From assembly GCA_913040915.1 (NCBI GenBank), contig CAJWHW010000012.1:1-52586 (forward strand): a stretch of 52,586 bases of DNA, read 5' to 3'. Of this stretch, positions 17,851 to 38,035 are shown in pieces (positions within the stretch are counted from its first letter, which is position 1; the number at the start of each line of letters is the position of its first letter). Origin of the DNA: an uncultured Fidelibacterota bacterium (lineage in GTDB: Bacteria; Fidelibacterota; Marinisomatia; Marinisomatales; UBA1611). Both the position numbers and the translations under genes were made by a program. The notes beneath the pieces were generated by a model. That model did not search any database, was not told the DNA's origin, and saw only the letters and a program-made list of their open reading frames with translations.

Positions 17851-19075
17851 AAAGCCATCAATCTTTTCCTACATTGCCACGAACGCAGACAGCGGTGTGG
17901 TCCGAGGGGAGTTGAGAGCATTGGGCGAAGATGGCGCTCTTATGCAACTAGAGCGAATGGGGCTAGACCCTGTTTCTGTATCGGAGAAAAAAGAATCCAT
18001 TTTAAACATGGATATCACTTTTTTTGAAAAAGTTCCTCCTACAGATATATATAATTTTACTCGGCAGTTATCTGTAATGCTAAAAGCCGGTGTCCCATTG
18101 GTAGATGCATTGGATTCAGTTCATTCTGATCAAACCAACCCCTTGTTAAATAAAACGATCGATTCGGTTATAGCAGATGTCTCAGGTGGAATGGCGCTTT
18201 CCAAGGCCATGGATAAACATCCAAAAGTGTTTAATAATATGTTTGTAAATATTGTAAAAGCTGGGGAGAGTGCAGGTGTTTTAGATAAGGTATTGTTCCA
18301 ATTAGCAGATTTTATTGCCCATGATCTAAAACTAAAAATGGGTATCAAACAGGCCATCCGCTATCCATCTATTGTGATCGGTATCACAATGGCAGTGGGT
18401 GTATTCGCTGTTACTTATATTTTACCCCGATTCTCCACCTTGTTCAGCAATACCCGAATTGAACTGCCTTTGCCAACCAGAATCCTTTTGGCTATAGACC
18501 AATTCATGCAGGACAACTGGGCTGGCATACTCTTCTTTATTGCATTTTTTATTTTTGTCTTCTGGCGGGCATTAAAAACAAAGCAGGGATTATTTCAGTG
18601 GCACAAATTTGTTTTAAGCCTACCTATTTTTGGTCCGCTTGCCCAAAAGATGGCTATCTCCCGTTTTTGCCATGTATTGGATACTCTGGATCGAACAGGT
18701 GTTCCAATTCTAGAAGCATTAGATATTGCAGGTAGAACAGCGGGTAATGTATTCATAGAAGATCGTTTATCCCGTGTGCATTCAGATGTAGAAATGGGTA
18801 AAAAAGTAGCACTTTCTATCCAGCGCCATACCCATGATATATTTCCACCTCATGTCTTGAAAATGATTCAGGTTGGCGAAGATGCAGGTGCCATGGATGA
18901 TATGTTAAAAGAGATCGGTGATATGACCGATGCGGAAGTCCAAGATCGGGTTTTAAAATTGACAGCAACGCTGGAGCCACTTATAACAGTGGTCATGGGT
19001 GTGATGATTTTAACCTTAGCTTTGGCAATCTTTTTACCTATCTGGGATATGTACGAAGCACTATCCACTAGTTAA
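17828..19075 (+). CDS. pilC: Type IV pilus inner-membrane platform protein PilC/GspF
   Basis: FTRQLSVMLKAGVPL, AGESAGVLD, A.RYP, VGEDAG.MD.ML, LEPLITVVMG...AIFLPI. Confidence 0.95.
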   Translation: MASEKKTKKPSIFSYIATNADSGVVRGELRALGEDGALMQLERMGLDPVSVSEKKESILNMDITFFEKVPPTDIYNFTRQLSVMLKAGVPLVDALDSVHSDQTNPLLNKTIDSVIADVSGGMALSKAMDKHPKVFNNMFVNIVKAGESAGVLDKVLFQLADFIAHDLKLKMGIKQAIRYPSIVIGITMAVGVFAVTYILPRFSTLFSNTRIELPLPTRILLAIDQFMQDNWAGILFFIAFFIFVFWRALKTKQGLFQWHKFVLSLPIFGPLAQKMAISRFCHVLDTLDRTGVPILEALDIAGRTAGNVFIEDRLSRVHSDVEMGKKVALSIQRHTHDIFPPHVLKMIQVGEDAGAMDDMLKEIGDMTDAEVQDRVLKLTATLEPLITVVMGVMILTLALAIFLPIWDMYEALSTS

Positions 19076-19082
19076 TAATTAT

Positions 19083-19601
19083 TTATTGCAGAATTTTTAA
19101 TTCCTTTTCTTCCTGCCATTGATCTACACTTTCCTTTATTCCAAAGAATAAAGCTATAAGAAAAACAGCCTGAAATATCAGTTCATTAATCTGTAATACT
19201 GTTCCAGCCCAGTATTGACCTCGACAGAATAATATTCCCAAATATGGTGGGATAATTCCAAGGAAAAAGTGGTACCCTACCAAACCGAGCGCAGGCGATT
19301 TTTGTCTGGATATCAAAAAAATGGAAAAAGGTAACCAGAAATAACCACCAAAGGGTACACCAAAACCTCGTGGTGAACTATATCCATCAGACTGAATATT
19401 AATCCGTCTATTCTCTATGGTTAATTTTTTCTGGTTCTCTTCTTGAAGTGCCAGAAAATAGGGTGCAATTATTTGTTGGTTAAAGTGGGCTCGTACTGGC
19501 CTAATCAGTAATATATATAATAGGGGTATTAGGCTCAGGCAAAGGAGAGCACGGAATCGGAATGATTCGAGCCTTCGCTTAATAAGGTCCATCTGTACCA
19601 A
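19083..19601 (-). CDS. Hypothetical multi-TM membrane protein downstream of the exosortase
   Basis: 172-aa ORF with ~4 hydrophobic segments, overlapping the exosortase 3' end; start uncertain. Confidence 0.6.
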   Translation of the reverse strand: MVQMDLIKRRLESFRFRALLCLSLIPLLYILLIRPVRAHFNQQIIAPYFLALQEENQKKLTIENRRINIQSDGYSSPRGFGVPFGGYFWLPFSIFLISRQKSPALGLVGYHFFLGIIPPYLGILFCRGQYWAGTVLQINELIFQAVFLIALFFGIKESVDQWQEEKELKILQ

Positions 19602-20080
19602 ACCCAGAGTACGAACGGATAAAAGAATATAAATGGGCTGAATTCATGAAAAGTGTCCCAGTAAGGTTGGAAATATACTGTGGCAAGCGAAAAAGCCATA
19701 ATACGAATTATATTTAAAATATAGATCATCCCAATACCACCCAATAAATAAATCAATCTTTTTTGATTTGGACCTTTGAAAGAAATAATGAACCCTGAAT
19801 ACAGAGCCATTAGGCTAAGAGCATTACAACCATTTAAGACTTCTACCCCACGATATCCTTCAATAACGATCAATCTATCCGATGCGGAAATATTCCAGCT
19901 AAATAAGGATAGGGCATTTTTTGCTAGCACTGCAACAGATACAGAGAGAAAATGATCCAGACGGCCGTCCGGTAAAATGATAAGGTCATATATTACCTGC
20001 CAGACAATATAAAAGATGCTGGCCTTGACCATAAAACCCAAAAATGGATTTTGGGAAAATTTATTTTTCAGTATTTCCAA
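19535..20080 (-). CDS. Exosortase/archaeosortase family protein (short form, XrtF/XrtX-like)
   Basis: Cys-Arg-His catalytic pattern: VEVLNGCNAL, LNIIRI, DTFHEF; TM-rich. Confidence 0.85.
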   Translation of the reverse strand: MEILKNKFSQNPFLGFMVKASIFYIVWQVIYDLIILPDGRLDHFLSVSVAVLAKNALSLFSWNISASDRLIVIEGYRGVEVLNGCNALSLMALYSGFIISFKGPNQKRLIYLLGGIGMIYILNIIRIMAFSLATVYFQPYWDTFHEFSPFIFFYPFVLWVWYRWTLLSEGSNHSDSVLSFA

Positions 20081-20253: not shown

Positions 20254-23061
20254 CTACTTGATGAAAGTAATCTTTTGATTAAATGTTTCATTTCCGACAA
20301 CCATACTGACTAAATATATGCCTGATGAAATGTTGCCAGGGTTCCAGCTGATCTGGTGAGTTCCGGGAATCATGTATCCATTTGTGAGTGAAGCCACCTG
20401 CTTACCAGCAATATCAAATATGTCTAACGATACCATATTAGCATTTGGAAGATCAAAACTAATTAATGTACTTGGATTAAATGGATTTGGATATGCACTG
20501 TGCAGAATAAATTTTTCTGGCAGGATATGCTCATCTGTTGCAACTGATGTACCATGAACAGATAGAGTAAAGTGGGATTGGCCGACAACTGGATAAGTTG
20601 CCATAAAGTCTCCAGAAGTTGAGAAACTGCCTTTGCTAGAAAGTGTAATGTTTGCAGATGGATAGCCTGTTAAATTGATATTCTGTCCTGTTATGTTATT
20701 CCTTAGTTCCAAAGTAATACCTTCAGGGAGATTTGCAATATCCCAAGTTAAATCAACCTGCTCTGTCTGTGTAACATAGCCGTCATCTGTGGGATAAAGC
20801 ATCATAACATCCATGTCTATGAAAATATCAGTAGATAGATCATAAGGGAGATTATTAATAGCCAGAGATTTGTTTGACTCATAGATCATGCTAGTTAAAT
20901 GTTCTACTGGTGATAACGGTACAAGCCGATTTGCATCTGCTGGATCTAAATTAATCTCTCCTTCTGGAGTAAAAGATAAATAGGTCGAACTGCTATAGCC
21001 ACCATTAGTGAAAGTGAACACAACACTCCCGTTTGAGCCATCCGTGGTTATTCTGCCATTATTATTCATGTGCCCTCTGTGGATACTTTGCTCTGTAAAT
21101 TCAAAAACATCGCCATCCGTATCAGCCTGGATCCAAAAGCCATCAAAAGGTTTAATTTCATCATTCTCAATATTACCTACTACACCATTGTGAATCTTGT
21201 AACCTGGATTAGAGAGATCTAATACATAGACAGTTGAATTGAACCTGCTACTGTTATCTAATAACATTTGACTAATATCCACAGCAAGTCCATATGGATT
21301 TCCAATCAGGTTCCATTCGCTGGGTTCAGATACAACTGAAACAGCGGATTGATGTTGCACGCTATCAATGGAAATAGTAACTGGCAAATCATCTTCACCA
21401 TCAAAATCTGTATCAGCAAATATATAGATTAAAAAACCTTGTCCCGCGTTTAACTCATCATTGTATAAATCTGTAACAGGGTTCCAGCCGTTGTCGTAGG
21501 TCCATATATTTGGACTGGAATTCGCATTGTCTGACCCTTCTGCGCCCTGTGTCCATAATTCTTCTAAAAGGTCGCCGTAAATTGCACCCGAGACCGGGCT
21601 GGATAAGATACGAAATCCTGACTCTCCGGTTATTTCCAAACTGTGGAGGCTGACTGCAACCATATAACTCTGTGTTATAACACCGCCATTACCATCATTA
21701 GCAGTCAGAATAATCTCGTGCAAACCGCCATCTGTAGAACTTGGGGTACCGCTTAATATACTATTGCTTAAATTCAACCAGTCAGGTTTTAGAGTAGCTG
21801 TTATAGCTACATTATCTCCATCTTCATCATTCACAGAAATAGAATATTCATAGAGTGATCCATTTAGTGCATCCAGGACAGGTGTTGATAAAAATGTGGG
21901 GGATGTATTTGGAGCTTGCATGGGAGATATAATAACATATCCATTACCAGTATTTAAATCTGATGATATGTATGTTCCTCCTATATAATTTCCACCACCG
22001 CCACCGGAGCCTACGCGTGTATTACTTCCGCCACCACCGGAATAACCGCCACCACCACCGGCATTTGCTTCAAAGCTCGAATGTAGTCCAGCACCTGCTC
22101 CACCTCCAAATCCACCTGGAATATCTGTAGTAAAATTTCCATAAAAAACTCGATTAATTCCACCAGTTCCCCAGCCTCCATTAAGGTAACTATTCCCTGG
22201 AGTTCCAGCATAATAACTTCCTGAACCTGGGTTTGAGCCACTACTGTAAAATCCACCGCCTCCGGCACCACCATACTGACTGGCCCCTCCTCCATTTCCT
22301 TGGGTACCACCTGGGCCAACTTCATTCCAACTACCTGAATATCCAGTTCCATCGGATCCGTTAACGTTGTCATGGGCAGAACCATCAACACCTTGGAGTG
22401 ATACGTTCCAACTCCCTGAGCCTTGTGCGCTTCCACCGCCACCACCGCTGACCAATAAGGGTGCTCCTTCATTTCTAATAATAAATGTTCCACCACCGCC
22501 ACCGCCAGCATAGGCATTAGATAAATAACCACGTCCACCTTCTTGCCCAACTAAAATATCTAATACATCACCCTGAGATAAATATATTTCCATTGTAATT
22601 ATTCGACCTCTTCCACCAGGAGTATTCGGTGTATAGCCTCCTGATGCTCCTGCTGCAGTTATAGAATAGTCTCCCGATTGTGGAACAATCCATCTTTGGA
22701 TACCATTAGTCACTGTAACAGAGCCATCTAAACTAGTTCCAGCATATGTATTGTTTGCTTGTTCCTGTGTAGGACCATTTGTTCCAGTTGCACTACAATT
22801 GGTAAAAGTATATTCAGAGCCATTAAGATCTGTAATGGATAGAGCAATTGAATTGGAACCATCTTCTTTGAAAATATTACTTTCAAGTTTTGAATCACCT
22901 TGATGATTATTTTCTATAGTATTATCCGATAAATACAGGCCCTGTGGTATAAATGTTCCTGTGAGACCAGGCATATTCTGGCCCGCATTCAGAACAATAT
23001 TAAATGAATTATTTAATAAGAAAAATAATGTTAAAAGTGTTATTCTTTTCTTCAATTTCAA
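20254..23061 (-). CDS. Secreted T9SS type-A CTD protein with ALK/LTK-like glycine-rich domain and cadherin/Ig-like repeat
   Basis: Signal peptide; GIQRWIVPQSGDYSITAAGASGG followed by poly-Gly tracts; NTSPTF...D.DGD Ig repeat; C-terminal LHSAYPNPFNP...SSGIY...QKITFIK. Confidence 0.85.
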   Translation of the reverse strand: MKLKKRITLLTLFFLLNNSFNIVLNAGQNMPGLTGTFIPQGLYLSDNTIENNHQGDSKLESNIFKEDGSNSIALSITDLNGSEYTFTNCSATGTNGPTQEQANNTYAGTSLDGSVTVTNGIQRWIVPQSGDYSITAAGASGGYTPNTPGGRGRIITMEIYLSQGDVLDILVGQEGGRGYLSNAYAGGGGGGTFIIRNEGAPLLVSGGGGGSAQGSGSWNVSLQGVDGSAHDNVNGSDGTGYSGSWNEVGPGGTQGNGGGASQYGGAGGGGFYSSGSNPGSGSYYAGTPGNSYLNGGWGTGGINRVFYGNFTTDIPGGFGGGAGAGLHSSFEANAGGGGGYSGGGGSNTRVGSGGGGGNYIGGTYISSDLNTGNGYVIISPMQAPNTSPTFLSTPVLDALNGSLYEYSISVNDEDGDNVAITATLKPDWLNLSNSILSGTPSSTDGGLHEIILTANDGNGGVITQSYMVAVSLHSLEITGESGFRILSSPVSGAIYGDLLEELWTQGAEGSDNANSSPNIWTYDNGWNPVTDLYNDELNAGQGFLIYIFADTDFDGEDDLPVTISIDSVQHQSAVSVVSEPSEWNLIGNPYGLAVDISQMLLDNSSRFNSTVYVLDLSNPGYKIHNGVVGNIENDEIKPFDGFWIQADTDGDVFEFTEQSIHRGHMNNNGRITTDGSNGSVVFTFTNGGYSSSTYLSFTPEGEINLDPADANRLVPLSPVEHLTSMIYESNKSLAINNLPYDLSTDIFIDMDVMMLYPTDDGYVTQTEQVDLTWDIANLPEGITLELRNNITGQNINLTGYPSANITLSSKGSFSTSGDFMATYPVVGQSHFTLSVHGTSVATDEHILPEKFILHSAYPNPFNPSTLISFDLPNANMVSLDIFDIAGKQVASLTNGYMIPGTHQISWNPGNISSGIYLVSMVVGNETFNQKITFIK

Positions 23062-23102: not shown

Positions 23103-23119
23103 AGCAAAAACTGTGCCTA
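23103..23119 (-). promoter_or_regulatory. Sigma-54 (-24/-12) promoter of the T9SS cargo/exosortase operon
   Basis: Minus strand reads TAGGCACAGTTTTTGCT (GG-N10-GC), ~40 bp before the 23061 start. Confidence 0.8.
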
Positions 23120-23384: not shown

Positions 23385-25094
23385 TTAATCTTTTAGTAAT
23401 GAATGACTGGATGAACTGTTCTCAGTTGCATCCTGCCAGTTTAGATCTGGAAATAAATACCGAGCTTTATTATAAACAGCCCATCCTTTTTCCCGTAGAC
23501 CAACGGCTTCATATGCTTTCGCTAAATCATAATAAATAAACGAAAAGGGCGAATGCTGGATATAATCTTCTGCCCATTCAATATAATCCTGGAATTTATC
23601 TTTATCACCAGTTTTTTTCGCCAAGCTTAAGTGCAGGCTCATAGCCAACACATCATATTTTTTATTTAGGATTTTGGGATTCCATGCCGAGAATAATAAT
23701 TGAGGGTTTTTATAACCAGTACGTTCATACTTTGTAATCACACGGCCGGTCTGTAGGGCTGTAACCATTAATGGTATCACAATAGCAGGGATTAAGACTG
23801 CAATTATTCTAGGTGCGAAGTTCAGGTTTAACCTTTTTGTTTTCCATTCCCCGATTTCTTCATCTATAAAAGACAAAAGAAAAATAAATAAAAACCAATG
23901 AACCAGAGAAAGATAAAACGGCAATTCCAGTTGTGTATGAATCAGAATCGGTAATATTAGTCCGGCTATCCCAAAGGATTGTCTCCTATCCTTTGCCAGC
24001 CAAAGTATAGCTAGGAATCCGCCAGCAATAATTAATAGCCCAAATAGAGGTAAAATACCACCTTCTGTCATCCACAGTAATGTTTCATTGTGCGGGTGAT
24101 CCATATTACCAGATCCTACAAGGATAGTTGAGTCTGTACTGCTTATTTCTGCATAATTATGACGGAGATGGGAAAAATAATTACCGTACCCTACCCCCAT
24201 GAATGGTTGCTTTTTCCACATATAATAGCTCAGTTCATATAATACCATTCTGGTATTGACTGAACGATTCATATTTTCATCTGATCTGGAATTATATGAC
24301 GAATTTGCCCCAATGATAAAGCCTAAAATAGCAACGGCCAGCCATGTACCTAATTTCTTTTGTTGGTCCATGTTTCCAATGGAGATGATCAAAACAGAAA
24401 TAAAAAAGGTTATGTATCCGGTCCGGGATTGTAGCGGAATGTAGAGTATACTCGTTAGAAAGGGTGTGCCCAATACAAGTACTGCCTTGATCCAGGAATT
24501 TCTTATTTCATCATCTTTAATGAATAAATAAAGACTGATTGCAGCACCTGTGACCAAAAAAGTGGCCATGTTATTTTTCTGCATTAAAACAGCCAAGGGC
24601 CTTCCAAACCAGTCTTCCAATGGTAAAAACTTCTGGAAAAGGCCATAGCAAGCCTGTACTAAAATTCCCATCAAAATGATATAAAGCAGCTGAATACGAT
24701 CTGCTCTATTAAAGTGAAACTGCTGAAGACAGAAAAAAAGCAGTACACCAGCGCATAAACCTAAAATACGCTGAATAGCTAAATGGCTATGCTCATTATT
24801 GGGGTAAATTAATGGCAGCAGCAGCATGACCAACCCAACCAGACAATAGAGCATAAACTGGCTGTATTCTACTATTCTCTTTGAAGCCATATGCCAAAGG
24901 CCGATTCCAATCATGAGAGAAATAAACATCCACCCTATTGCATTAAACGGTAAATAAAGGCCGTAGCCGCCCATGTGATCTATATTGATATGCATACCAA
25001 CCAGTATGTACAGACTGAATATGATCTTAAATAAATTTCTGGTGTTTAATCTGCTAATTTGCATTTCCATGGGTTGCTGGAAATTAAGAATCAA
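23385..25094 (-). CDS. pglL: PglL-type protein O-oligosaccharyltransferase (Wzy_C / O-antigen-ligase superfamily)
   Basis: N-terminal GGYGLYLPFN.IGW, QKNNMATF, SRTG, PFMGVGYGN, DHPHNE.L.W..EGG, PILIHTQLELPFY.SL.HW; divergent from the pilin array; start uncertain. Confidence 0.8.
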   Translation of the reverse strand: MILNFQQPMEMQISRLNTRNLFKIIFSLYILVGMHINIDHMGGYGLYLPFNAIGWMFISLMIGIGLWHMASKRIVEYSQFMLYCLVGLVMLLLPLIYPNNEHSHLAIQRILGLCAGVLLFFCLQQFHFNRADRIQLLYIILMGILVQACYGLFQKFLPLEDWFGRPLAVLMQKNNMATFLVTGAAISLYLFIKDDEIRNSWIKAVLVLGTPFLTSILYIPLQSRTGYITFFISVLIISIGNMDQQKKLGTWLAVAILGFIIGANSSYNSRSDENMNRSVNTRMVLYELSYYMWKKQPFMGVGYGNYFSHLRHNYAEISSTDSTILVGSGNMDHPHNETLLWMTEGGILPLFGLLIIAGGFLAILWLAKDRRQSFGIAGLILPILIHTQLELPFYLSLVHWFLFIFLLSFIDEEIGEWKTKRLNLNFAPRIIAVLIPAIVIPLMVTALQTGRVITKYERTGYKNPQLLFSAWNPKILNKKYDVLAMSLHLSLAKKTGDKDKFQDYIEWAEDYIQHSPFSFIYYDLAKAYEAVGLREKGWAVYNKARYLFPDLNWQDATENSSSSHSLLKD

Positions 25095-25181: not shown

Positions 25182-25198
25182 ACGGCACATTTTTTGCT
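25182..25198 (+). promoter_or_regulatory. Sigma-54 (-24/-12) promoter of atypical pilin A
   Basis: ACGGCACATTTTTTGCT (GG-N10-GC); CGTAACAtaaTGATACA upstream at 25146-25162. Confidence 0.75.
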
Positions 25199-25258
25199 TT
25201 AATCAATTGACAAAACATAGCAAGGGTAATTAAGCCTCCCATAAAATTTGGAATAAAA

Positions 25259-25897
25259 TTGAAAAAAACACTCATAAAATATCTCGGTAAAAATTCAGGA
25301 CAGTCTCTGGCTGAATTTGCAGTCATCACAGCCATGATGGCTACTTTTATTGCTACGGCCAGTGCAAAACTCTCTGACATGATGGAAGGCAGTAAGGTCC
25401 GTAAGGCGGAAGAAGAAATGGATAAAATTTTGATTCAGGCACAGAATTTTTATCAGGAGACAGCAACTCAAGAAGGTCGTGGGCGTTTCCCAGGGCAGGA
25501 CAAATACAATATGGCAGTAGGTGGCTACACTAGTGAACTTGAACTGATAGATGATATTCAATTATTTGAAACTTTTGACAGCGAAATCGGGGAAAACTGG
25601 TGTTCCATTTTTGGGGTTGACCATGAAAATGCCCCCATGCCCGCAGGTGGCTTTTTTGAGAATGACACAGTAGTGGCTGAAGATGTATGCAATGCCTGTC
25701 CAGAGACCCGGTTTCCAGGCCATGAAGACTGGCTCTACAAATTTGGTGGAGAAGCCATGGGAAGCCCCTTTCAGGATGGCCATTTTATCTACGCAGTCAT
25801 TCCTGGCAGTGGCTCCGGTGATGATGCAGAACCACCTATTTTATATATAGCGGATGCTGAAAATCCAAAATTTCTAAATAAAATGCTCCAGTTCTAA
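25259..25897 (+). CDS. Atypical type IV pilin-like protein A
   Basis: Basic leader, G|QSLAEFAVITAMMATFIATASA (E at +5), NFYQ...GRGRFPG; paralog of the next three genes; TTG start. Confidence 0.8.
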   Translation: MKKTLIKYLGKNSGQSLAEFAVITAMMATFIATASAKLSDMMEGSKVRKAEEEMDKILIQAQNFYQETATQEGRGRFPGQDKYNMAVGGYTSELELIDDIQLFETFDSEIGENWCSIFGVDHENAPMPAGGFFENDTVVAEDVCNACPETRFPGHEDWLYKFGGEAMGSPFQDGHFIYAVIPGSGSGDDAEPPILYIADAENPKFLNKMLQF

Positions 25898-26154
25898 CTG
25901 GATCTCTCCCCGCTGTTACCCTATTGTGGTTACAGCCCAATTATCTTCGCATCGATACGCGAAAAAATTAATTCCTACGAAAAGAAAACTCAGTCCATAA
26001 AAACCCTTCAATATACTTAAGGGTTTGGACAAGATAATTAGAGCGATAGTCTATTTGACATTGTTTCATATTGTTACATCCGGTATTCAATCAAGGTGTA
26101 ACATTCTGATATTATAAAATTATTTATCGACGAAAACACATTTATTTAAAAAGT

Positions 26155-26171
26155 TTGGCACGTACTTTGCA
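26155..26171 (+). promoter_or_regulatory. Sigma-54 (-24/-12) promoter of atypical pilin B
   Basis: TTGGCACGTACTTTGCA, near-perfect consensus. Confidence 0.9.
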
Positions 26172-26232
26172 TTAGGGTAGTAATTAAACTTAAAAAAACT
26201 TGTTTCCAACTAAACTCGATAAGGAGATAAAC

Positions 26233-26901
26233 ATGAAACAAACACTGAAAAGAATCATCAGAAATGTAAAAAGCGTAAACGGGAACTCTCTCGCTGAATT
26301 CGCTACTACAACTGCTCTGATGGCTACATTGGCTGCTACAGCTGCTCCTAAACTTTCTGAAATGTCTGAAGGTACTAAAGCTGAAAAGTCAATGAACGAA
26401 ATTGATAAAATCTTAACTCAAGCACGTAACTTCTATCAAACAACTGCTGATGAAGAAGGTCGCGGCCGTTTCCCTGGACAGGATAAATTTGATGTTCCTG
26501 TTGGTGGTTATGGTGAAACACGTGGTACTTTAAATCAAGCTATCGAAGCTCAAGGCGATTTAGTAGCTGCTCTAGAAGCATGGACTGATTGGGATGCTGA
26601 CGAAGGCGCTAACTGGCGTTCTGTATTTGGCGTTTCTAATGAAGCTGCTAAGCAAGATGATGGCGGTAAAGTTATTGATGATACATACATAGAATGTGGT
26701 ACATGCCCAGGTGTTAATCCAGGTCACGAAGATTGGATAGAACTTTTTGCTGGTAATACACTTGCTAGTAAATACCAAGACGGACACTTCGCTTATGCAG
26801 TGATCCCAGGTGGCGGTTCTGGTTTAGACGCTTTCCCTCCAGTACTTTATGTAGTGGACGTGGAAAATGCTTCTCACTTTAACAACATTCTTGAGCCGTA
26901 A
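26233..26901 (+). CDS. Atypical type IV pilin-like protein B (candidate major subunit)
   Basis: AAGGAG RBS then ATG 26233; G|NSLAEFATTTALMATLAATAAP (E5, P22); own promoter and terminator. Confidence 0.85.
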   Translation: MKQTLKRIIRNVKSVNGNSLAEFATTTALMATLAATAAPKLSEMSEGTKAEKSMNEIDKILTQARNFYQTTADEEGRGRFPGQDKFDVPVGGYGETRGTLNQAIEAQGDLVAALEAWTDWDADEGANWRSVFGVSNEAAKQDDGGKVIDDTYIECGTCPGVNPGHEDWIELFAGNTLASKYQDGHFAYAVIPGGGSGLDAFPPVLYVVDVENASHFNNILEP

Positions 26902-26925
26902 AAACAATTGTAACTCTATAGTTAC
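26239..26925 (+). repeat. Direct repeat copy 1 (~687 bp), matching 27256-27942
   Basis: Offset 1017 bp; no differences found by eye, and both sense and antisense ORF translations are identical. Confidence 0.92.
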
Positions 26926-26935
26926 CCTTGTCGAT

Positions 26936-26974
26936 AAAAGCCCCGGCTCCCTAAAAGGATCCGGGGCTTTTTTT
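26936..26974 (+). terminator. Rho-independent terminator after pilin B
   Basis: AAAAGCCCCGG...CCGGGGCTTTTTTT. Confidence 0.9.
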
Positions 26975-27172
26975 ATTAAATATTTATTAGCTCCCACCCT
27001 ATTTACACCTACTCATTTAAATTAAAAATTGGTCCTGTATCTGAAAAACCAGATAGCGGAACAATCCCTGTATCCATATGTGACATGTTACAGATTCTAA
27101 ATGTAACACTTTGTTAACATGAAAAATTATTTAATGACGGAGAAAACAATTAATTATTACAAAATATCGATT

Positions 27173-27189
27173 TTGGCACGGCCTTTGCT
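27173..27189 (+). promoter_or_regulatory. Sigma-54 (-24/-12) promoter of atypical pilin C
   Basis: TTGGCACGGCCTTTGCT. Confidence 0.9.
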
Positions 27190-27249
27190 TTATAGCGGGT
27201 AGTTAACTAAAAAAACTTGTTTCCAAACAACCTCAAAAGGAGGAACAAA

Positions 27250-27918
27250 ATGAAGCAAACACTGAAAAGAATCATCAGAAATGTAAAAAGCGTAAACGGG
27301 AACTCTCTCGCTGAATTCGCTACTACAACTGCTCTGATGGCTACATTGGCTGCTACAGCTGCTCCTAAACTTTCTGAAATGTCTGAAGGTACTAAAGCTG
27401 AAAAGTCAATGAACGAAATTGATAAAATCTTAACTCAAGCACGTAACTTCTATCAAACAACTGCTGATGAAGAAGGTCGCGGCCGTTTCCCTGGACAGGA
27501 TAAATTTGATGTTCCTGTTGGTGGTTATGGTGAAACACGTGGTACTTTAAATCAAGCTATCGAAGCTCAAGGCGATTTAGTAGCTGCTCTAGAAGCATGG
27601 ACTGATTGGGATGCTGACGAAGGCGCTAACTGGCGTTCTGTATTTGGCGTTTCTAATGAAGCTGCTAAGCAAGATGATGGCGGTAAAGTTATTGATGATA
27701 CATACATAGAATGTGGTACATGCCCAGGTGTTAATCCAGGTCACGAAGATTGGATAGAACTTTTTGCTGGTAATACACTTGCTAGTAAATACCAAGACGG
27801 ACACTTCGCTTATGCAGTGATCCCAGGTGGCGGTTCTGGTTTAGACGCTTTCCCTCCAGTACTTTATGTAGTGGACGTGGAAAATGCTTCTCACTTTAAC
27901 AACATTCTTGAGCCGTAA
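27250..27918 (+). CDS. Atypical type IV pilin-like protein C (protein identical to B)
   Basis: AGGAGG RBS, ATG 27250; 222 aa identical to 26233-26901. Confidence 0.85.
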   Translation: MKQTLKRIIRNVKSVNGNSLAEFATTTALMATLAATAAPKLSEMSEGTKAEKSMNEIDKILTQARNFYQTTADEEGRGRFPGQDKFDVPVGGYGETRGTLNQAIEAQGDLVAALEAWTDWDADEGANWRSVFGVSNEAAKQDDGGKVIDDTYIECGTCPGVNPGHEDWIELFAGNTLASKYQDGHFAYAVIPGGGSGLDAFPPVLYVVDVENASHFNNILEP

Positions 27919-27942
27919 AAACAATTGTAACTCTATAGTTAC
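27256..27942 (+). repeat. Direct repeat copy 2 (~687 bp), matching 26239-26925
   Basis: See copy 1. Confidence 0.92.
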
Positions 27943-27950
27943 TTTAATTA

Positions 27951-27991
27951 AAAAAAGCTCCGGTTACCTAAAAGGATCCGGAGCTTTTTTT
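27951..27991 (+). terminator. Rho-independent terminator after pilin C
   Basis: AAAAAAGCTCCGG...CCGGAGCTTTTTTT. Confidence 0.9.
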
Positions 27992-28185
27992 ATGGGTATA
28001 ACCTTGAAATTAAATACCGTAACAAATTGTGACCCTGTATCGAAGATAGACAAACTGTATTAATACAATACAAAAGAAACCAAAAAATAAATATAAGATA
28101 ATAATGATTAAAAAAAAGTATTTCTCGACGAAGAATACAAAATAATTAACGAAAATGTTATTTATTATACTTCTCTCGGTATACT

Positions 28186-28202
28186 TTGGCACAGGAATTG
28201 CT
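28186..28202 (+). promoter_or_regulatory. Sigma-54 (-24/-12) promoter of atypical pilin D and pilA
   Basis: TTGGCACAGGAATTGCT. Confidence 0.88.
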
Positions 28203-28240
28203 AATAGTAATTAAATATTTTAATGAAAAAGGAAAATACA

Positions 28241-28876
28241 ATGAAAAATTTCTTAAAGTACATCAAAAGCACAAAGGGCCAGTCTCTTGCTGAATTTGCT
28301 GTAACAACAGCAATGATGGCTACGCTGGCAACCACAGCTGCACCAAAATTTTCCGGTGTTGGTGAAGGTGCTAAAGAGAAAAAAACATTGGCTGATATTG
28401 ATAAAATCATGAAATCTGCCAACAACTTCTACAATGCAAAAGTAACCACTGATGGTCGTGGCCGTTTTCCTGGTCAATCCAAGTATAACGAAACCGTACC
28501 CGATAATAATGGTGGCTATGCAACAGAAGATCTGCTTCTAGCAGGACTTGAAAACTTCACTACTTATGACGCAGAAGAAGCTGGTAAATGGGCATCTATC
28601 TTTGGCAGGAGTAATGATGAAGCGACTGCTCCAAGTGGCAATCAGATTAACCCATCAGAAGATGATAATGATAATGGTTCATTTGATCTTTACGTTGGCG
28701 CTGAAGAATTCCTAAACGAATTTGGTGGAAACGCTATTAAGAGCCCTTTCCAGGATGGTCACTACATCTATACAGTGATTGCTGGTTCTGGATCCGGGAC
28801 AAGCTCCGTTTCACCAATTCTCTACATAGCAGACTTGGAAAGTCCAAAGAACTTTAACAAAAAACTTCAACCGTAA
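28241..28876 (+). CDS. Atypical type IV pilin-like protein D
   Basis: AAGGA RBS before ATG 28241 (alternative start 28223); KG|QSLAEFAVTTAMMATLATTAAP; GRGRFPG and SPFQDGHY shared with A-C. Confidence 0.82.
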   Translation: MKNFLKYIKSTKGQSLAEFAVTTAMMATLATTAAPKFSGVGEGAKEKKTLADIDKIMKSANNFYNAKVTTDGRGRFPGQSKYNETVPDNNGGYATEDLLLAGLENFTTYDAEEAGKWASIFGRSNDEATAPSGNQINPSEDDNDNGSFDLYVGAEEFLNEFGGNAIKSPFQDGHYIYTVIAGSGSGTSSVSPILYIADLESPKNFNKKLQP

Positions 28877-28943
28877 ATCATTAAACAAACCAGTAACTTT
28901 GAAGCACACCACAACCAAAGGAAAAAATAACAAGGAGTCAAAA

Positions 28944-29378
28944 ATGAAAGACACTAAAGGATTCACCCTGATTGAATTAATTATGGTCACAATCATATTA
29001 GGTATTTTAGCTGCCGTTGCTATCCCTCGATATATGACATCCGTTGCAGCTGCTGAAGCTGCTGCTGAAGACGCAGTAATCTCGAGTATCAGAGCCGGTT
29101 TAGAAAACTATGCTACTGAACAGCTTATGAGTGGCGGCCGTCGTACATGGCCAACTAATCCGTTTGATGCACTGGATACAACACCATCCGGCTATTCAGC
29201 TAGTGATAGCGATGATGCAGATACCGATGGCGAATGGACCTTTAACACTACTACCAATAATATTACTCACCAACGTGATGATAATACCCGCTACCACTGG
29301 GATTACGAAAAAGGCGTACAGACTGGTGATAATGCGAATGTTGGTACCTTAGGTGCAAGAGAATCAGGCGTAAACTAA
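28944..29378 (+). CDS. pilA: Canonical type IV pilin (PilA/MshA-like)
   Basis: AAGGAG RBS; MKDTKG|FTLIELIMVTIILGILAAVAIPRY. Confidence 0.9.
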   Translation: MKDTKGFTLIELIMVTIILGILAAVAIPRYMTSVAAAEAAAEDAVISSIRAGLENYATEQLMSGGRRTWPTNPFDALDTTPSGYSASDSDDADTDGEWTFNTTTNNITHQRDDNTRYHWDYEKGVQTGDNANVGTLGARESGVN

Positions 29379-29443: not shown

Positions 29444-29476
29444 AAAAAGGCTTCGGTTAATTCCGAAGCCTTTTTT
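29444..29476 (+). terminator. Rho-independent terminator after pilA
   Basis: AAAAAGGCTTCGG-TTAATT-CCGAAGCCTTTTTT. Confidence 0.9.
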
Positions 29477-29512: not shown

Positions 29513-29989
29513 ATGAAAAAATTTGTTAAATCAACAAAAGGTTTTACCATGATGGAATTCGTGGTTACTCTGGCCATTATGGGCATTCTCATGAGTGTAG
29601 CTGTCCCTTCCTTCTATAATGTAAGGATACAGCTACAGGAACGACAGGGAGTGACCAATATGAATATTATAAGGGAAACATTTTTCCATTATTTTTATCA
29701 GACTCATATGGCTGGAAATCCCCATTTTCCGCCAACACCCAATAATGAAGAGAAATTAATGGATTCGGACTGGGCGTCCACACCTATTGATTCCATCAAC
29801 TCACCGGTATCGCCAAGACAACTTTTTTCTAATGGGGAAATGCCCAGAAATTTAAACCGCCATCCTTTTGCCTATGAAACCTGGAATGATACAGTTAGGG
29901 CAACCGGTGAAATCATTTATTATATTAAAATTTCGGATGTGGATGAAGATAGTCCTTCTTTCGAAAAATCCTTTACTCATGCCATATAA
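29513..29989 (+). CDS. Type IV minor pilin
   Basis: KG|FTMMEFVVTLAIMGILMSVAVP; ATG 29513. Confidence 0.87.
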   Translation: MKKFVKSTKGFTMMEFVVTLAIMGILMSVAVPSFYNVRIQLQERQGVTNMNIIRETFFHYFYQTHMAGNPHFPPTPNNEEKLMDSDWASTPIDSINSPVSPRQLFSNGEMPRNLNRHPFAYETWNDTVRATGEIIYYIKISDVDEDSPSFEKSFTHAI

Positions 29990-30024
29990 ACTTGTATTCT
30001 TCTGGTTGGAAACGAAAACCGGCC

Positions 30025-30519
30025 ATGAAAAAAGAGTTAAAAAATAAGATAAAAAAATCTTTTCCCGGGTTCTCACTCACTGAACTCATAATTATTATTA
30101 TTCTCATCGGTATATTTGCTACCATGGCCATGACCCGTACCCGGACAGGGATGGCAACCATCCAGATGCAGATAGCCATCGATCAAATCACCAGCGATAT
30201 CGAACTGGCAAAATCAATGGCATTTGCAAAGCATGATACAATCACCCTTTCTTTTTCAACAGCACAAGATCACTATACCATTTACAGTGGGCCCGATGGA
30301 TCCCGATCAACCATAAGCGATTTTCCTAATAGCAATGGTGGTGTGATTTCCTTTAACAATGCAGATTTTAGAGAAGTGGATATTTCAGCTGCTAATTTTG
30401 GAGGCTCAGCGGAGCTTCAATTCCTCCCTCTAGGCGAACCTAAATCCGGTGGCAGTGTCGTGCTCAATTCAAAAACAATTTCGGTTGAGCCTGTCACAGG
30501 GAAATGGAGCGTAAATTGA
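30025..30519 (+). CDS. Minor pilin, FimT/GspH/MshC-like
   Basis: PG|FSLTELIIIIILIGIFA; DIELAKSMA, LQFLPLGEP, ISVEPVTG. Confidence 0.85.
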   Translation: MKKELKNKIKKSFPGFSLTELIIIIILIGIFATMAMTRTRTGMATIQMQIAIDQITSDIELAKSMAFAKHDTITLSFSTAQDHYTIYSGPDGSRSTISDFPNSNGGVISFNNADFREVDISAANFGGSAELQFLPLGEPKSGGSVVLNSKTISVEPVTGKWSVN

Positions 30520-31001
30520 ACAAATTAACATCAAGATCATTTACAGGATTCACTCTGATAGAGGTGATGGTGGTTTTGATTCTACTGACTCTCTCTTTCA
30601 TGGTATTTTTACAGGCCTTAAATACAGGAAAAACAGTTCGCAGCAATTCAGAATTGAGAACAGTTCAGGCTCTGATTTTAAACAGCCTTCAGCAGGAGAT
30701 TCGAGCACGAAAATATGACCACAATGATTCTAAACCGTGGTCCGGCGTTTTGGGCCCTGAGTCAGGTGAAAGTGCGATATCTTCTTTTAATGATATCGAT
30801 GATTTCCATCAATATGCAATTGCATCTGTTGATGGAAATGATGCCTACAGCTGCTTTGTGGAAGTAAGTTATGTTCAAGCAGCAGATGGTTTCCAAACAG
30901 AGCAATCCAACCCAACTGATTTTAAATCTGTACTGGTGAGAGTTTCCCACAAAACTCTGCCACCGTTAACCGATATAATGATTATTAGCTCTGGATTTTG
31001 A
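30504..31001 (+). CDS. Minor pilin, PilV/MshD-like
   Basis: TG|FTLIEVMVVLILL; FNDIDDFH motif. Confidence 0.85.
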   Translation: MERKLNKLTSRSFTGFTLIEVMVVLILLTLSFMVFLQALNTGKTVRSNSELRTVQALILNSLQQEIRARKYDHNDSKPWSGVLGPESGESAISSFNDIDDFHQYAIASVDGNDAYSCFVEVSYVQAADGFQTEQSNPTDFKSVLVRVSHKTLPPLTDIMIISSGF

Positions 31002-31002
31002 T

Positions 31003-31563
31003 TTGAAAAATAAAAAACAAAAAGGATTTACACTCATAGAAATGATTCTGGTCATCGTAGCCGTCGGTATTATTGGCTCTATGGCAGCAACCATGTTATT
31101 TCAGGGTGCAGATGTTTTTGTTTCAGAAACCAACCGTCAGGGATTCGTTAGCGCAAACCGGTCCGCTTTCTGGAAGTTAATGCGGGAAACACAAGGCCAA
31201 AACTCACCGAATGATTTTACACTATCGGATCATAACAGCCTTTATTTGAGAAATGTGAGCGGGGCGCAGAAGGAATATCAAACTTCTTCCCCAGGAACCT
31301 TTAATTATAGAGAAGGCTCGGGCAGTTATAATTCATTGTCTAATTCATATCATTATGAACTGTCTACAGGGTTTCAATTTTATAATTCTAATTTTTCACT
31401 CATTACTCCTTCAAGCGGCGGTCTGTCTCTCACGCAAGCAAAAACAGTTAAACTCTCGAAACTGGATATGTCATTTGTAAGTGATACTGATACATTGTCC
31501 CTATCAACATATGTTTATCCGCAAAATTTTCGATTCGGCACCAAAATGACTTTTCACGACTAA
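31003..31563 (+). CDS. Minor pilin, PilW/MshO-like
   Basis: KG|FTLIEMILVIVAVGIIG; TTG start. Confidence 0.85.
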   Translation: MKNKKQKGFTLIEMILVIVAVGIIGSMAATMLFQGADVFVSETNRQGFVSANRSAFWKLMRETQGQNSPNDFTLSDHNSLYLRNVSGAQKEYQTSSPGTFNYREGSGSYNSLSNSYHYELSTGFQFYNSNFSLITPSSGGLSLTQAKTVKLSKLDMSFVSDTDTLSLSTYVYPQNFRFGTKMTFHD

Positions 31564-33443
31564 TGAATAGAAATCACCATAGGAAAAGCGAATCAGGTGT
31601 AATCCTTATGGCATCTACCATGGGAATCTTTATTATATTAAGTATTTTTGCTTTTTATCTAGCAAGGTTCTCGGTAACAGAATCCAGAACCGGTGGATAT
31701 TACATGCTGGATATTAAGGCAAGGAATCTTGCTATGACCGGTTTGGAACATGGAATTCAGTCTTATAAATCGTCTCGAAGTCTGTCAAATATCAACGGCT
31801 CATTCAATAATGGGAATTACAAAGTTGAGTTTGATGATTCCAATGATGAATCAGGATCTCCCCTTCCTCATTCAAATTATATTATGATGAAGAGTAAGTC
31901 TACAATCAATGATGTAGAACGCAATTTGAGGATTATAATTTCTTCCATGCCAGAAGCATTCTGTTTCTCATACTATGGAAACAATGCGAGTAACCAGACC
32001 TTTACAGAACCAAATGGTAATATAAACGGAGACATGTTTTATAATGGGAATGTCCAATCTAACAGTGGAACAAATAGCGGTACAACCTATACCAGTACAG
32101 GTATTGGAGGAACACTACTGTCTTCCCCTCCATCATTCCCCGATCTGGATATAACTCTTTATGAAAATTTATTAAATGCAGCCGCAGCTGCTACGGGCGC
32201 ATATGTTAATTATGCTTTAGAATTTAATGGTAGTGATAATGTGCGTATTGAAAGCAGTTCAGATATTAATCTTGGCATTCATGGTCAGCGGACAATAGAA
32301 GCATGGTTTAATACAAACAACAAGAACAGTGGCACTAGACAGGTTATATTTGAAGAAGGCGGTGGTACTCGAGGCTTAAATATCTATATCGTAAGTGGTC
32401 GACTTTATGTTGGAGGATGGAATAGGAGATCAAACGAAAGTAATTGGACACCCGGTACATGGATGTACACGACAGCATTTAATAATAATACCTGGTATCA
32501 CGTTGCTTTAACACTCAACGGTGGTTCATCCGTTTCGGCTAATGCATTAAAATTCTATTTAAATGGTTCCTTGATTTCTAGTGGATCAGGGTCTCAGCTT
32601 TGGGGACATAATCCCGCCAATATTGGACGTACCATCAGCGGCTCCAGATACCACAATGGAACCGGGAATGGATATTCATTTAATGGGGAAATTGATGAAG
32701 TGCGCATTTGGAATGTCGAGCGATCTGCCAGTCAGATTGCTGCAAAAAAAGATACAATTCTCTCCGGGAATGAAACGGGATTAACAGCCTATTATAATTT
32801 TCAGGAAAATAATGATAGTAAAGCAAATGATACACAGACAGAATCAAATAATGATGGCACAATATCAGGAGCAACCTGGACAAGTGGACCAAATTTGGGA
32901 AAAATGAATAACTCTTTATTCTCAGGTGTTACAATTAATTTAAATAATTATCCTGATAATAAACTTCTGGTAAACGACGATTTAAACATTTCTAACTGTA
33001 CAATAAACGGACCGGGTTACATTGTTGCAGATGGCAGTATAAGCATTAGTACAAATTCAACAGTAAATGGTAATGTTTTTATAGTTAGTGAAGGAACAAT
33101 GGATATAGACAACTCTCAAGTCGGGACAAGTCTTAGTGCGTCGGTTATACTTTATTCAAAAGATGATGCTGAATACAGTAATTCAACCATCTATGGCTGC
33201 ATTATATCAAAGGGAGATGATTTAATCATAGATGGGTCTACTCTACGCGGTGCAGTTTTAAATTACAGCAGCAGCTTTTCTCTAAGGGGTAATACTAATA
33301 TTACAGGGTCTGTTGTATCCTACCATTCTGCAGAATTTGTAGGTGGCTCTATCTCAGTCTCAAAAGGTGATTTACCTCTGTTTGCAGGGTATGATATTGG
33401 TCTGGACCCAATGGTTATCCCGGGTTCGTATTTAGAATATTAA
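31563..33443 (+). CDS. PilX/MshP-like pilin fused to a LamG (concanavalin-like) domain and a beta-solenoid-like C-terminus
   Basis: SG|VILM (no E5, PilX-type), KARNLAMTGLE.G; RTIEAWF, WYHVALT, KFYLNG, FNGEIDEVRIWN; ends IPGSYLEY. Confidence 0.82.
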   Translation: MNRNHHRKSESGVILMASTMGIFIILSIFAFYLARFSVTESRTGGYYMLDIKARNLAMTGLEHGIQSYKSSRSLSNINGSFNNGNYKVEFDDSNDESGSPLPHSNYIMMKSKSTINDVERNLRIIISSMPEAFCFSYYGNNASNQTFTEPNGNINGDMFYNGNVQSNSGTNSGTTYTSTGIGGTLLSSPPSFPDLDITLYENLLNAAAAATGAYVNYALEFNGSDNVRIESSSDINLGIHGQRTIEAWFNTNNKNSGTRQVIFEEGGGTRGLNIYIVSGRLYVGGWNRRSNESNWTPGTWMYTTAFNNNTWYHVALTLNGGSSVSANALKFYLNGSLISSGSGSQLWGHNPANIGRTISGSRYHNGTGNGYSFNGEIDEVRIWNVERSASQIAAKKDTILSGNETGLTAYYNFQENNDSKANDTQTESNNDGTISGATWTSGPNLGKMNNSLFSGVTINLNNYPDNKLLVNDDLNISNCTINGPGYIVADGSISISTNSTVNGNVFIVSEGTMDIDNSQVGTSLSASVILYSKDDAEYSNSTIYGCIISKGDDLIIDGSTLRGAVLNYSSSFSLRGNTNITGSVVSYHSAEFVGGSISVSKGDLPLFAGYDIGLDPMVIPGSYLEY

Positions 33444-33580: not shown

Positions 33581-34009
33581 ATGGTAAATCCCATGATAAT
33601 TATCCTTGCAATCGGAGTAATATCCGCGGTTTTTGGCACCCTATTAATCTTCGCACCTGAAGCCATTTTAAAAGCAGAAAGACAGGCCAATCGTCTGTTT
33701 ATGACAGATACAGCATTTTTAAAAAACAGAATTCCCATTGGGATAGGTTTATTGGGAGCATCAGGTTTTTTAGGTTATACCTATGCTTCAAACCCAATAA
33801 ATGAATTAGTCTTTTTAGTGACTGCTATCATTGCCGGCGTCTTTGGCATATTGCTTCTCGTTTCACCAAATACAATACTGAAAGCAGAAAGACAGGCCAA
33901 TAAATTATATATGACAGATGCCTTCTTCTTAAGACACCGTATCGTAATAGGAATCGGGCTGCTGTTGGCATCGGTATTCATGGTGTATACCTACTTATCA
34001 TTCGCCTAA
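33581..34009 (+). CDS. Hypothetical 4-TM membrane protein made of two 70-aa repeats
   Basis: P..ILKAERQAN.L.MTD..FL..RI.IGIGLL.AS occurs twice. Confidence 0.75.
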   Translation: MVNPMIIILAIGVISAVFGTLLIFAPEAILKAERQANRLFMTDTAFLKNRIPIGIGLLGASGFLGYTYASNPINELVFLVTAIIAGVFGILLLVSPNTILKAERQANKLYMTDAFFLRHRIVIGIGLLLASVFMVYTYLSFA

Positions 34010-37940: not shown

Positions 37941-38035
37941 TAGCAATTAATTCTTCCATAAAGGTGAATTTATTATTGACCACAAAAAGATTTTAGTTAC
38001 AGTAAATTTCTGGGTAGTTTAAGGTGTAATCCATT

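Follow-up and report, generated by a model that had tools for sequence, protein, structure and literature searches.

A probable type IV pilin family with Asn or Gln at position +1 in a SAR406 pilus locus and its relatives on marine phages

Which protein forms the filament of a type IV pilus locus in which four genes carry a pilin-like signal that the standard pilin models do not detect? The question is raised by a contig of an uncultured Fidelibacterota bacterium (contig CAJWHW010000012.1 of GenBank assembly GCA_913040915.1; C12 below), whose whole 52,586 nucleotides are referred to here as the window; the genome to which it belongs is 1.86 Mb long and 85% complete. Across window positions 25259-28876, four paralogous genes, called A, B, C, and D, follow one another on the same strand and encode proteins of 211-222 amino acids (Table 1). 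A profile search of the whole genome found these four copies of the family only. We regard it as very probable that A-D are a family of type IV pilins assembled by the machinery of their own locus, which resembles type IVa and MSH systems.

The N-terminal signal is the first line of evidence. The initial annotation, made from the sequence alone, had described four paralogs with a basic leader, Gly at -1, Glu at +5, and Pro at +22 in B, C, and D, and both the open reading frames (ORFs) and their alignment agree with it. The leaders are 13-17 residues long and contain Lys/Arg. At +1, which had also been described as Gln or Asn, A and D have the former and B and C the latter. Gly-1, Glu+5, the stretch FY..EGRGRFPGQ, and the C-terminal motif QDGH..Y.V..G.GSG..P.LY..D.E, which had been noticed at first reading, are invariant among the four, with a mean column identity of 71%. 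A is 50-51% identical to the other paralogs and has Ala in place of Pro+22. Among 270 homologs retrieved, 214 with an N-terminus were used for motif counts. Gly-1 is present in 212 of them and Pro+22 in 206, the median leader has 17 residues, and position +1 is occupied by Asn (174), Gln (29), Ser (6), Ala (4), or His (1), and by Phe or Met in none (0/214). Glu+5 is invariant in an alignment of 33 sequences, from which the family profile was built. Conservation is concentrated in the N-terminal ~90 and the C-terminal ~45 residues, and the middle is variable and rich in indels.

A type IV pilin is defined, in a passage of Berry and Pelicic (2015, PMC4471445), by a leader of 6-26 residues ending in Gly, Glu at +5, a mostly hydrophobic tract, and a lollipop fold. 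Set beside the wording of that passage, A-D have the leader, Gly-1, Glu5, the helix, and the fold, the last as a prediction. Their N-terminal tract is of fitting length and uncharged except for Glu5, and it is weakly hydrophobic. They are encoded, furthermore, alongside a prepilin peptidase, an assembly ATPase, and a platform protein, as the linkage expected of pilin genes would have it. On the narrower description of type IVa pilins, the short leader and Pro+22 are found (A itself has Ala), and Phe or Met at +1 is not.

Homology to known pilins was recovered with the family profile. When compared against all PDB sequences, its best matches were type IV pilins, namely Geobacter PilA-N (2.6e-5 and 7.7e-5), followed by Myxococcus PilA (1.3e-3), MshA (3e-3), and a PilA (3.9e-3), and in the alignment to solved pilins Gly-1, Glu+5, and Pro+22 are in register. 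In the genome-wide search the same profile ranked, after the four copies, the two canonical pilins of the locus (2.2e-8 and 6.9e-5). Consistently, an hhalign comparison of the family with the adjacent PilA-type family gave a probability of 90.7% and E = 1.3e-6 over 84 columns, with Glu5 aligned and the alignment running through the helix to a common GR-x-[FW]-P motif at the helix exit. By this alignment the first ~84 residues of A-D are shown to be homologous to the adjacent canonical pilin.

The predicted structure points in the same direction. The full AlphaFold2 model (predicted local distance difference test, pLDDT, 84.8) consists of a single 58-residue helix, residues 18-75, of which residue 18 is position +1, followed by a head whose C-terminal strands (186-191, 204-209, and 217-220) are the only three long strands predicted; a model cut at +28 reached a pLDDT of 91.8 and a predicted template modeling score of 0.89. 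In an exhaustive structural alignment (VIA-align) against 48,161 chains, the top 19 neighbors of the full model were all pilins or pseudopilins (Z 5.1-3.6), as were the top 18 neighbors of the cut model (Z 5.0-3.6, 67-97 residues, root-mean-square deviation 2.4-5.5 Å), and MshA was among the neighbors of both. The alignments of the cut model mostly start at chain residue 28, which is the cut position +28. Since every Z score lies in the range in which the tool advises caution, weight was put on the enrichment of pilins and on the register rather than on single matches. No solved pilin aligns with some 100 residues of the head, among them the helices near 100-127 and 164-171 in B, and the predicted fold is a pilin-like lollipop with a large, mostly helical insertion in the head. 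A complex prediction for three copies of mature B (score 0.00, mark 0.42) speaks neither for nor against self-assembly.

Several results count against pilin identity. In Pfam, at E up to 10, A, B, and D match neither N_methyl (PF07963) nor TadE (PF07811) nor the archaeal class III signal (PF04021), and in NCBIfam, at E up to 1, they match no model, TIGR02532 included, a failure of the N-methylation models that had been foreseen at the outset; the five neighboring canonical pilins do match the N_methyl / TIGR02532 models. The helix had been called Thr/Ala-rich and polar, and rightly so: family-wide, Ala makes up 41% and Thr 29% of residues +6 to +21, whose mean Kyte-Doolittle value is 1.41, and the helix cores of A-D score 1.3-1.8 against 2.1-3.6 in the other pilins of the genome. 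Because the core is so weakly hydrophobic, membrane insertion of A-D is assumed here. Foldseek against the PDB returned nothing at E <= 0.001 for the full or the cut model (its best rows, unrelated hydrogenases with a template modeling score of about 0.1, were discarded), so that the fold proposed initially stands as pilin-like by AlphaFold2 and by its neighbors at modest Z and drew a blank in Foldseek; the Z scores themselves, 5.1 at most over ~70-124 aligned residues, are below the level that the tool treats as safe. Finally, a second A24 peptidase, which the initial annotation did not include, is encoded on contig C3. It is protease-only and 29% identical to the PilD of the locus, which has an A24_N_bact plus a protease domain, and it could be the processing enzyme; linkage would favor the locus PilD in this role.

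The C3 peptidase is itself part of a second cluster, resembling a type IV filament or type II secretion system, that comprises the A24 peptidase, GspF, a GspE with an MshEN domain, a Big_1 protein, and a secretin and adjoins a dockerin-bearing C25 (gingipain-like) peptidase. At a distance of about 10 kb lies a true PilT flanked by three canonical pilins (G↓F, G↓V, and G↓I, where the arrow marks the predicted point of cleavage).

The same weak helix raises the question of whether long filaments are formed at all. [quoted passage not shown] Proteins bearing class III signal peptides need not form pili, as is stated in a passage of PMC4471445. We nonetheless consider this explanation improbable, given a locus that is fully equipped with minor pilins and also encodes PilM/O-like proteins and a secretin, a head whose conserved core and variable center would be typical of exposed filament subunits, and tandem multi-copy arrays that fit a structural protein. 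Type IV pilins assembled by their own locus remain the preferred reading of A-D.

Among known systems, the type IVa major pilins (PilA/PilE) are the closest likeness: they share with A-D the short basic leader, Gly-1, Glu+5, Pro+22, a ~55-residue alpha1 helix on a C-terminal beta-sheet (predicted in A-D), and encoding together with PilB/C/D, PilM/O-like proteins, and a secretin. Pseudomonas pilA has a sigma-54 promoter and a dedicated activator, as at the A-D locus. The family differs from them in its +1 residue, which is Asn, Gln, Ser, or Ala but in no case Phe or Met, in the Ala- and Thr-rich helix core, in escaping the N_methyl and TIGR02532 models, in the ~100-residue, mostly helical head insertion, and in lacking a conserved C-terminal disulfide (D is without any Cys). 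MSHA-type pili are resembled in the MshEN / cyclic di-GMP-binding N-terminus of the locus ATPase, in the GspA/MshM-like AAA_22 ATPase, and in the presence of MshA among both sequence and structure matches; however, the signal of MshA is of the canonical G↓F type, unlike that of A-D, the secretin of the locus scores higher as PilQ/GspD than as MshL, and the true PilT is located elsewhere in the genome. The initial assignment of the machinery to the T4aP/MSHA type rather than to Tad agrees with the Pfam and NCBIfam calls, among which no Tad component was seen.

The residue at +1 could alternatively suggest Tad-type pseudopilins (TadE/TadF-like) or archaeal-type pilins cut by a protease-only peptidase. 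TadE and TadF have a superficially similar G↓x..EF motif with a residue other than Phe at +1, which G↓Q..EF resembles, and the genome does encode a protease-only A24 peptidase. In a passage of PMC4471445, the EppA-dependent pilins of Methanococcus maripaludis typically have Gln at +1 and a pyroglutamate N-terminus; A, D, and 29/214 homologs share the Gln, and by analogy pyroglutamate is chemically possible in the Gln+1 members. Yet TadE and Class_IIIsignal are unmatched even at the permissive Pfam threshold, A-D are much larger than TadE/TadF with a predicted pilin-type head, and the register and Pro+22 are those of type IVa pilins. In contrast to the Methanococcus proteins, most family members have Asn at +1 (174/214), Glu+5 and Gly-1 are nearly invariant, as the bacterial rule has it, and the machinery is bacterial. 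The protease-only peptidase belongs to another cluster, one of GspE, GspF, and secretin genes. No Tad ATPase was found in a pilT-family search, which gave only PilT and two ATPases of the PilB/GspE type, and a genome-wide motif scan gave no Flp-like pilin; the genome being 85% complete, these absences are not proof. Judged from their sequences, A-D are not Tad-type or archaeal-type pilins, and we hold this alternative to be highly improbable.

The regulation of the four genes separates B and C from D. The initial annotation credited every gene with its own sigma-54 promoter, which is exact for three of them and approximate for the fourth: the sequence TGGCAC-N5-TTGC occurs at only three sites in the 52.6-kb window, which precede the start of B by 63 nt, that of C by 62 nt, and that of D by 40 nt, whereas the box 62 nt upstream of A has one mismatch. 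Sites with at most one mismatch number 8 against 2.17 expected, a count reached in 0/100 shuffles. The genome encodes rpoN (sigma-54; 399.8 bits), and an activator gene lies inside the locus. Matches to sigma-70 elements are at the level of chance (14 vs 13.7), and a simple scan for terminators missed those that folding found. The terminators claimed for B and C are present as strong hairpins followed by a U tract (Table 1), the strong ribosome-binding site is seen as AAGGAG before B, and pilA is indeed the second cistron behind D, with no RNA structure found between the two by folding. From the placement of sigma-54 boxes and terminators, B and C are predicted to be monocistronic units and D and pilA a two-gene unit.

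Over a block of 687 nt (26239-26925 = 27256-27942), which covers the coding sequence and 24 nt past the stop codon, B and C are 100% identical, and their upstream regions are unrelated (24-40% identical). Because the identity is confined to the coding region and does not extend to the promoter regions, it probably results from gene conversion between two independently driven copies.

Codon usage sets the same genes apart. By an index of C-ending two-fold codons (NNC/NNT), B, C, and D rank 1, 2, and 4 among 1,467 ORFs (0.49, 0.47, and 0.42; genome-wide median 0.19, 99th percentile 0.36), and pilA ranks 10. Compared with the genome, B uses GCT for 88% vs 34% of Ala codons, AAC for 54% vs 18%, and TTC for 56% vs 21%. 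Two-fold codons of B are thereby shifted toward C, yet Ala, Gly, and Arg are shifted toward T-ending codons, and since a plain GC shift would not move codons both ways, the skew may be attributed to translational selection. In 4/4 marine RNA libraries, from 4 different studies, contigs lie over A, B/C, D, and pilA; several have 0 mismatches, and D and pilA are bridged. Moreover, 21-40% of the 6.5-kb stretch is represented in 23 marine metatranscriptome runs (18 studies). Contig depths of 144-314 for B/C, of 40-75 for D and D-pilA, and, in single exact or near-exact contigs, of 7-15 for A are a hint only. Little or no contig cover was found over the ligase (24600-25067) and most minor-pilin genes (29982-31600), which is no evidence of silence.

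Other observations temper the idea that A-D are the main subunit. The codon skew noted initially is real, but it is not a standard signature of high expression, because the ribosomal-protein genes (contig C17:66-14153) are essentially without codon bias, e.g., AAC 14% vs 18% in the genome. With a codon adaptation index built from 25 ribosomal-protein genes, B falls at the 28th percentile; that index was dropped as an expression proxy, the ribosomal-protein median being 0.68 and the genome median 0.66, and was replaced by the C-ending index, EF-Tu, which is cut by the contig end, being no codon reference. The RNA data are contigs, which indicate presence and not levels, so that depth cannot rank genes, and the libraries may contain DNA. 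The canonical pilin is present, codon-biased, and covered by the RNA libraries, and could be the real major subunit.

A somewhat unlikely alternative takes the canonical G↓FTLIE pilin (28944-29378) as the bulk subunit, and A-D as accessory or alternative pilins of low stoichiometry or as a second filament of the same machine, with D and pilA perhaps forming a two-component unit. It draws on the shared transcription unit of D and pilA, which has no terminator or promoter between the genes and is bridged by RNA-library contigs, on the pilA homolog that follows the D-type gene in 73/80 phage loci (see below) and in the host loci L001-L004, and on the rank of pilA in codon bias. Heteropolymeric pili, and organisms with two filaments, are among the solved structures (PDB titles 8pfb, 6xxd, and 6xxe). 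On the other side, B and C are monocistronic, with promoters and terminators of their own and no partner pilin, and they are duplicated, homogenized, and the most extreme in codon bias in the genome. Weighing these points, we hold it slightly more likely than not that A-D are the main subunit of the filament, and not accessory. The best overall explanation, and one that is reasonably likely, is a lineage-restricted new type IV pilin family in which B/C most likely provide the bulk subunit.

We infer that A-D are cleaved, polymerized, and used as the main subunit, and the following scheme is proposed. Transcription would start from the four separate promoters through sigma-54 RNA polymerase and the activator, whose gene lies between pilB and pilC. 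The prepilins would enter the inner membrane via the Ala/Thr-rich helix and be cut after Gly by the locus PilD, which would expose Asn or Gln at +1; N-methylation would be possible, as would pyroglutamate formation at Gln+1. PilB, PilC, the PilM/O-like proteins, and the secretin would then polymerize the subunits, primed by the G↓F-type minor pilins. The conserved helices would be packed as the core of the filament, and the variable central part of the head would face outward. B/C would most likely be the bulk subunit, and D may act as a pair with the co-transcribed canonical pilin.

The remaining features of the locus are listed in Table 1. Upstream, a response regulator gene is found beside the set of PilD, PilB, activator, PilC, and ligase genes. 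The Wzy_C ligase adjoining A is a candidate pilin glycosylation enzyme and suggests O-glycosylation of at least one pilin. A one-mismatch sigma-54 box lies ~45 nt before the gene of a 935-residue, glycine-rich protein with a T9SS sorting domain, which may be co-regulated with the pilins. Two overlapping ORFs, one of which matches Exosortase_EpsH, are maybe a split exosortase, and the AAA_22 protein resembles a PEP-CTERM-associated ATPase too, below the family cut-off. Beside the AAA_22-PilM gene lies the gene of a 142-residue membrane protein with an internal duplication and no reliable family match; it ranks 6 of 1,467 ORFs in the C-ending codon index and is conserved, with the same AAA_22-PilM neighbor, at a distant locus of a metagenome-assembled genome (MAG), L006:1392-1820 (-).

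Table 1. Positions of features in the window, and of related features on phage loci and on contig C3
Feature	Position	Strand	Description and support
PilD	13951-14751	+	prepilin peptidase, A24_N_bact + Peptidase_A24 domains (Pfam)
PilB	14753-16420	+	assembly ATPase, MshEN / c-di-GMP-binding N-terminus (Pfam, NCBIfam)
Activator	16417-17850	+	sigma-54-dependent transcriptional activator, AAA+ domain + HTH_8 (Pfam)
PilC/GspF	17828-19075	+	platform protein (Pfam, NCBIfam)
Possible split exosortase	19083-20080	-	two overlapping ORFs
Glycine-rich protein	20254-23061	-	935 aa, T9SS sorting domain
Box before glycine-rich protein	23104-23118	-	AGGCAC-N5-TTGC, 1 mismatch
Ligase	23385-25094	-	Wzy_C / Wzy_C_2 (PglL-like), adjoining A; weak PglL_A match (Pfam)
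Box before A	25183-25197	+	sigma-54-like -24/-12 box, CGGCAC-N5-TTGC, 1 mismatch (motif scan)
Gene A	25259-25897	+	A-type, 212 aa, TTG start, leader MKKTLIKYLGKNSG↓QSLAEF, Ala at +22
Box before B	26156-26170	+	exact sigma-54 box (motif scan)
Gene B	26233-26901	+	B/C-type, 222 aa, G↓NSLAEFATTTALMATLAATAAP, AAGGAG ribosome-binding site
Terminator after B	26936-26975	+	intrinsic, -24 kcal/mol, z -4.0 (folding)
Box before C	27174-27188	+	exact sigma-54 box (motif scan)
Gene C	27250-27918	+	222 aa, protein identical to B, 1 synonymous difference
Terminator after C	27949-27992	+	intrinsic, -23.3 kcal/mol, z -5.1 (folding)
Box before D	28187-28201	+	exact sigma-54 box (motif scan)
Gene D	28241-28876	+	D-type (subfamily common to phages), 211 aa, ATG (alternative start 28223), G↓QSLAEFAVTTAMMATLATTAAP
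pilA	28944-29378	+	canonical type IV pilin, MKDTKG↓FTLIELIMV, second cistron behind D
Terminator after D-pilA	29444-29476	+	intrinsic, -20.9 kcal/mol, z -5.3 (folding)
Four further G↓F-type pilins	29513-31563	+	canonical: second pilin, GspH/FimT-like, PilV-like, one other
LamG-domain protein	31563-33443	+	626 aa, after the minor pilins; candidate tip protein (Pfam)
Membrane protein	33581-34009	+	142 aa
AAA_22-PilM-like fusion, PilO-domain protein, GspB-like protein, secretin	34033-39878	+	(Pfam, NCBIfam)
Phage cassettes (examples)	L035:8004-9911; L054:7989-10057
C3 second cluster and PilT/pilin region	L011:9775-17784; C3:67501-69542

The closest public relatives of the genes are found in MAGs of Marinimicrobia / Neomarinimicrobiota (SAR406), where, as the initial annotation would lead one to expect, family genes stand beside pilBCD. 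At L006 the order is pilD-pilB-activator-pilC-family gene, and at L001-L004 arrays of 2-4 copies, each with a sigma-54 box, are followed by two canonical pilins; such host arrays recur in several genera. The family amounts to 1,864 clusters at 90% identity, nearly all unnamed and most on contigs of ~1 kb; a few are labelled 'FimT' by one source, and none contains a Pfam domain. An exhaustive search gave 296 representatives at 50% identity. An ESM Atlas look-up returned only unnamed clusters and, at rank 16, one N_methyl-bearing cluster; some were labelled 'Viruses'. A full-length match was found in 16/301 sampled genomes of the phylum, at 1-5 copies: 12/25 in the family-level clade of the window and single genomes in three other families. 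This tally is an underestimate. In 5/5 checked 'negative' relatives (G047, G241, G217, G218, and G244), the pilC contig ends 160-800 nt downstream, and 3/6 pilC contig stubs (L114-L119), from three further genomes, stop within the first codons of a family gene. Because short-read contigs break just after pilC, the presence or absence of the family in MAGs is unreliable. The family is large, unnamed, and centered on one Marinimicrobia clade. Full-text literature searches, judged mostly from listings, gave no description of it or of SAR406/Marinimicrobia pilins, in line with the initial suggestion that it is undescribed; the pilus passages seen in PMC5596340 concern another bin.

The D-type subfamily extends to marine phages, a finding beyond the initial annotation. 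Because the ESM Atlas had labelled look-alike clusters 'Viruses', IMG/VR was scanned, and a relative was encoded on 198/238 pattern-matched stretches of viral contigs; the locus counts below rest on 80 loci (L029-L108) kept of the 198. Each has a single family gene (80/80), with an ORF containing G↓[NQA]SLAEF in 76/80 and Pro+22 in 76/76. Directly after the D-type gene, 73/80 loci encode a homolog of the canonical pilin of the window (41-80% identity), and 1-3 pilins of the G↓F type lie downstream in 70/74. Homologs of PilB, PilC, PilD, and the secretin were found in 0/80 loci (tblastn with 14 other window proteins, within 8 kb). The flanks of three loci encode PhoH, CobS/CobT-like, MazG-like, and Hsp20 proteins, peptide deformylase, DNA ligase, an HNH endonuclease, an exonuclease, and a head-maturation protease, and the T4-type capsid protein Gp23 was found on 2/5 viral records checked (E about 1e-76). 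The canonical pilins that follow the phage D-type gene resemble known phage pilins (PHROG 3433 'pilin', moron/auxiliary) in matching phrog_3433, phrog_27437, and phrog_11596, whereas the D-type member itself matches no PHROG in 3/3 loci tested. D was not matched in 50,697 deposited phage genomes (tblastn).

An unrooted tree was built from 51 rows, of which 18 are host sequences and the rest are alternate members of the 66 unique phage rows. A branch with 100/99 support divides it into a host-only clade of A-type and B/C-type members (12 rows) and a D-type clade, where the 33 phage rows are interleaved with 6 from hosts. D has 73% identity to the nearest phage D-type copy, and the pilA of the window 80% to one from a phage. 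On the strength of the cassette, the phage flanks, the tree, and this closeness, the D-pilA module is best regarded as a unit common to SAR406 and an uncultured group of T4-like phages. A promoter-like element, GG[CT]A[CT]-N5-TTG[CT], is located 35-68 nt upstream of 64/73 phage copies, compared with 1.9% of random windows. It is mostly TGGTAC-N5-TTGT, with GT for GC at -12 (e.g., L035:7905-7925 and L030:7905-7925). Changes in the -12 element are said to make promoters less dependent on an activator; in this way, the phage might do without that of the host.

These data invite the idea that phages use the D-type gene, and maybe the entire family, chiefly as a weapon, whose pilins would enter the machine of the host and block, cap, or remodel the pilus, e.g., to exclude other phages, and that the host copies are domesticated phage genes. 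The frequency of relatives on viral stretches, the missing machinery, the phage-like flanks with Gp23, the interleaved D-type rows, and the 73% identity of the nearest copy would all suit it. The A-type and B/C-type members, however, are host-only in the sample (12/12 rows) and lie in a host pilus locus under host-type sigma-54 control; host arrays span several genera, and an unrooted tree does not give the direction of transfer. We give this idea as an account of the family little credence and prefer that of a host pilin family, one subfamily of which is shared with phages. A joint reading is offered tentatively: SAR406 may build its main filament from Ala/Thr-rich, barely hydrophobic Asn/Gln+1 pilins missed by annotation, and T4-like phages, with a cassette of a D-type and a canonical pilin under an altered sigma-54-like promoter, may feed subunits into the host machine to rebuild or disable the pilus, e.g., excluding rival phages or keeping the infected cell on particles.

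Few uncultured bacterial lineages of the dark and low-oxygen ocean are as abundant as SAR406 (Marinimicrobia), and to our knowledge almost nothing is known of its cell surface, of which the family appears to be a dominant, transcribed component. Since current pilin models are blind to the family, surveys of type IV filaments undercount it, and since the gene array breaks metagenome assemblies, presence/absence tables from MAGs are misleading for the pilus locus. Asn or Gln at +1 and an Ala/Thr core provide a test of ideas on how pilins are inserted into the membrane, extracted from it, and packed in the filament core. The matched pilin cassettes point to a little-explored interaction, in which a phage would supply filament subunits for the machine of its host, and, at the level of genes, tie an uncultured group of phages to its probable host.

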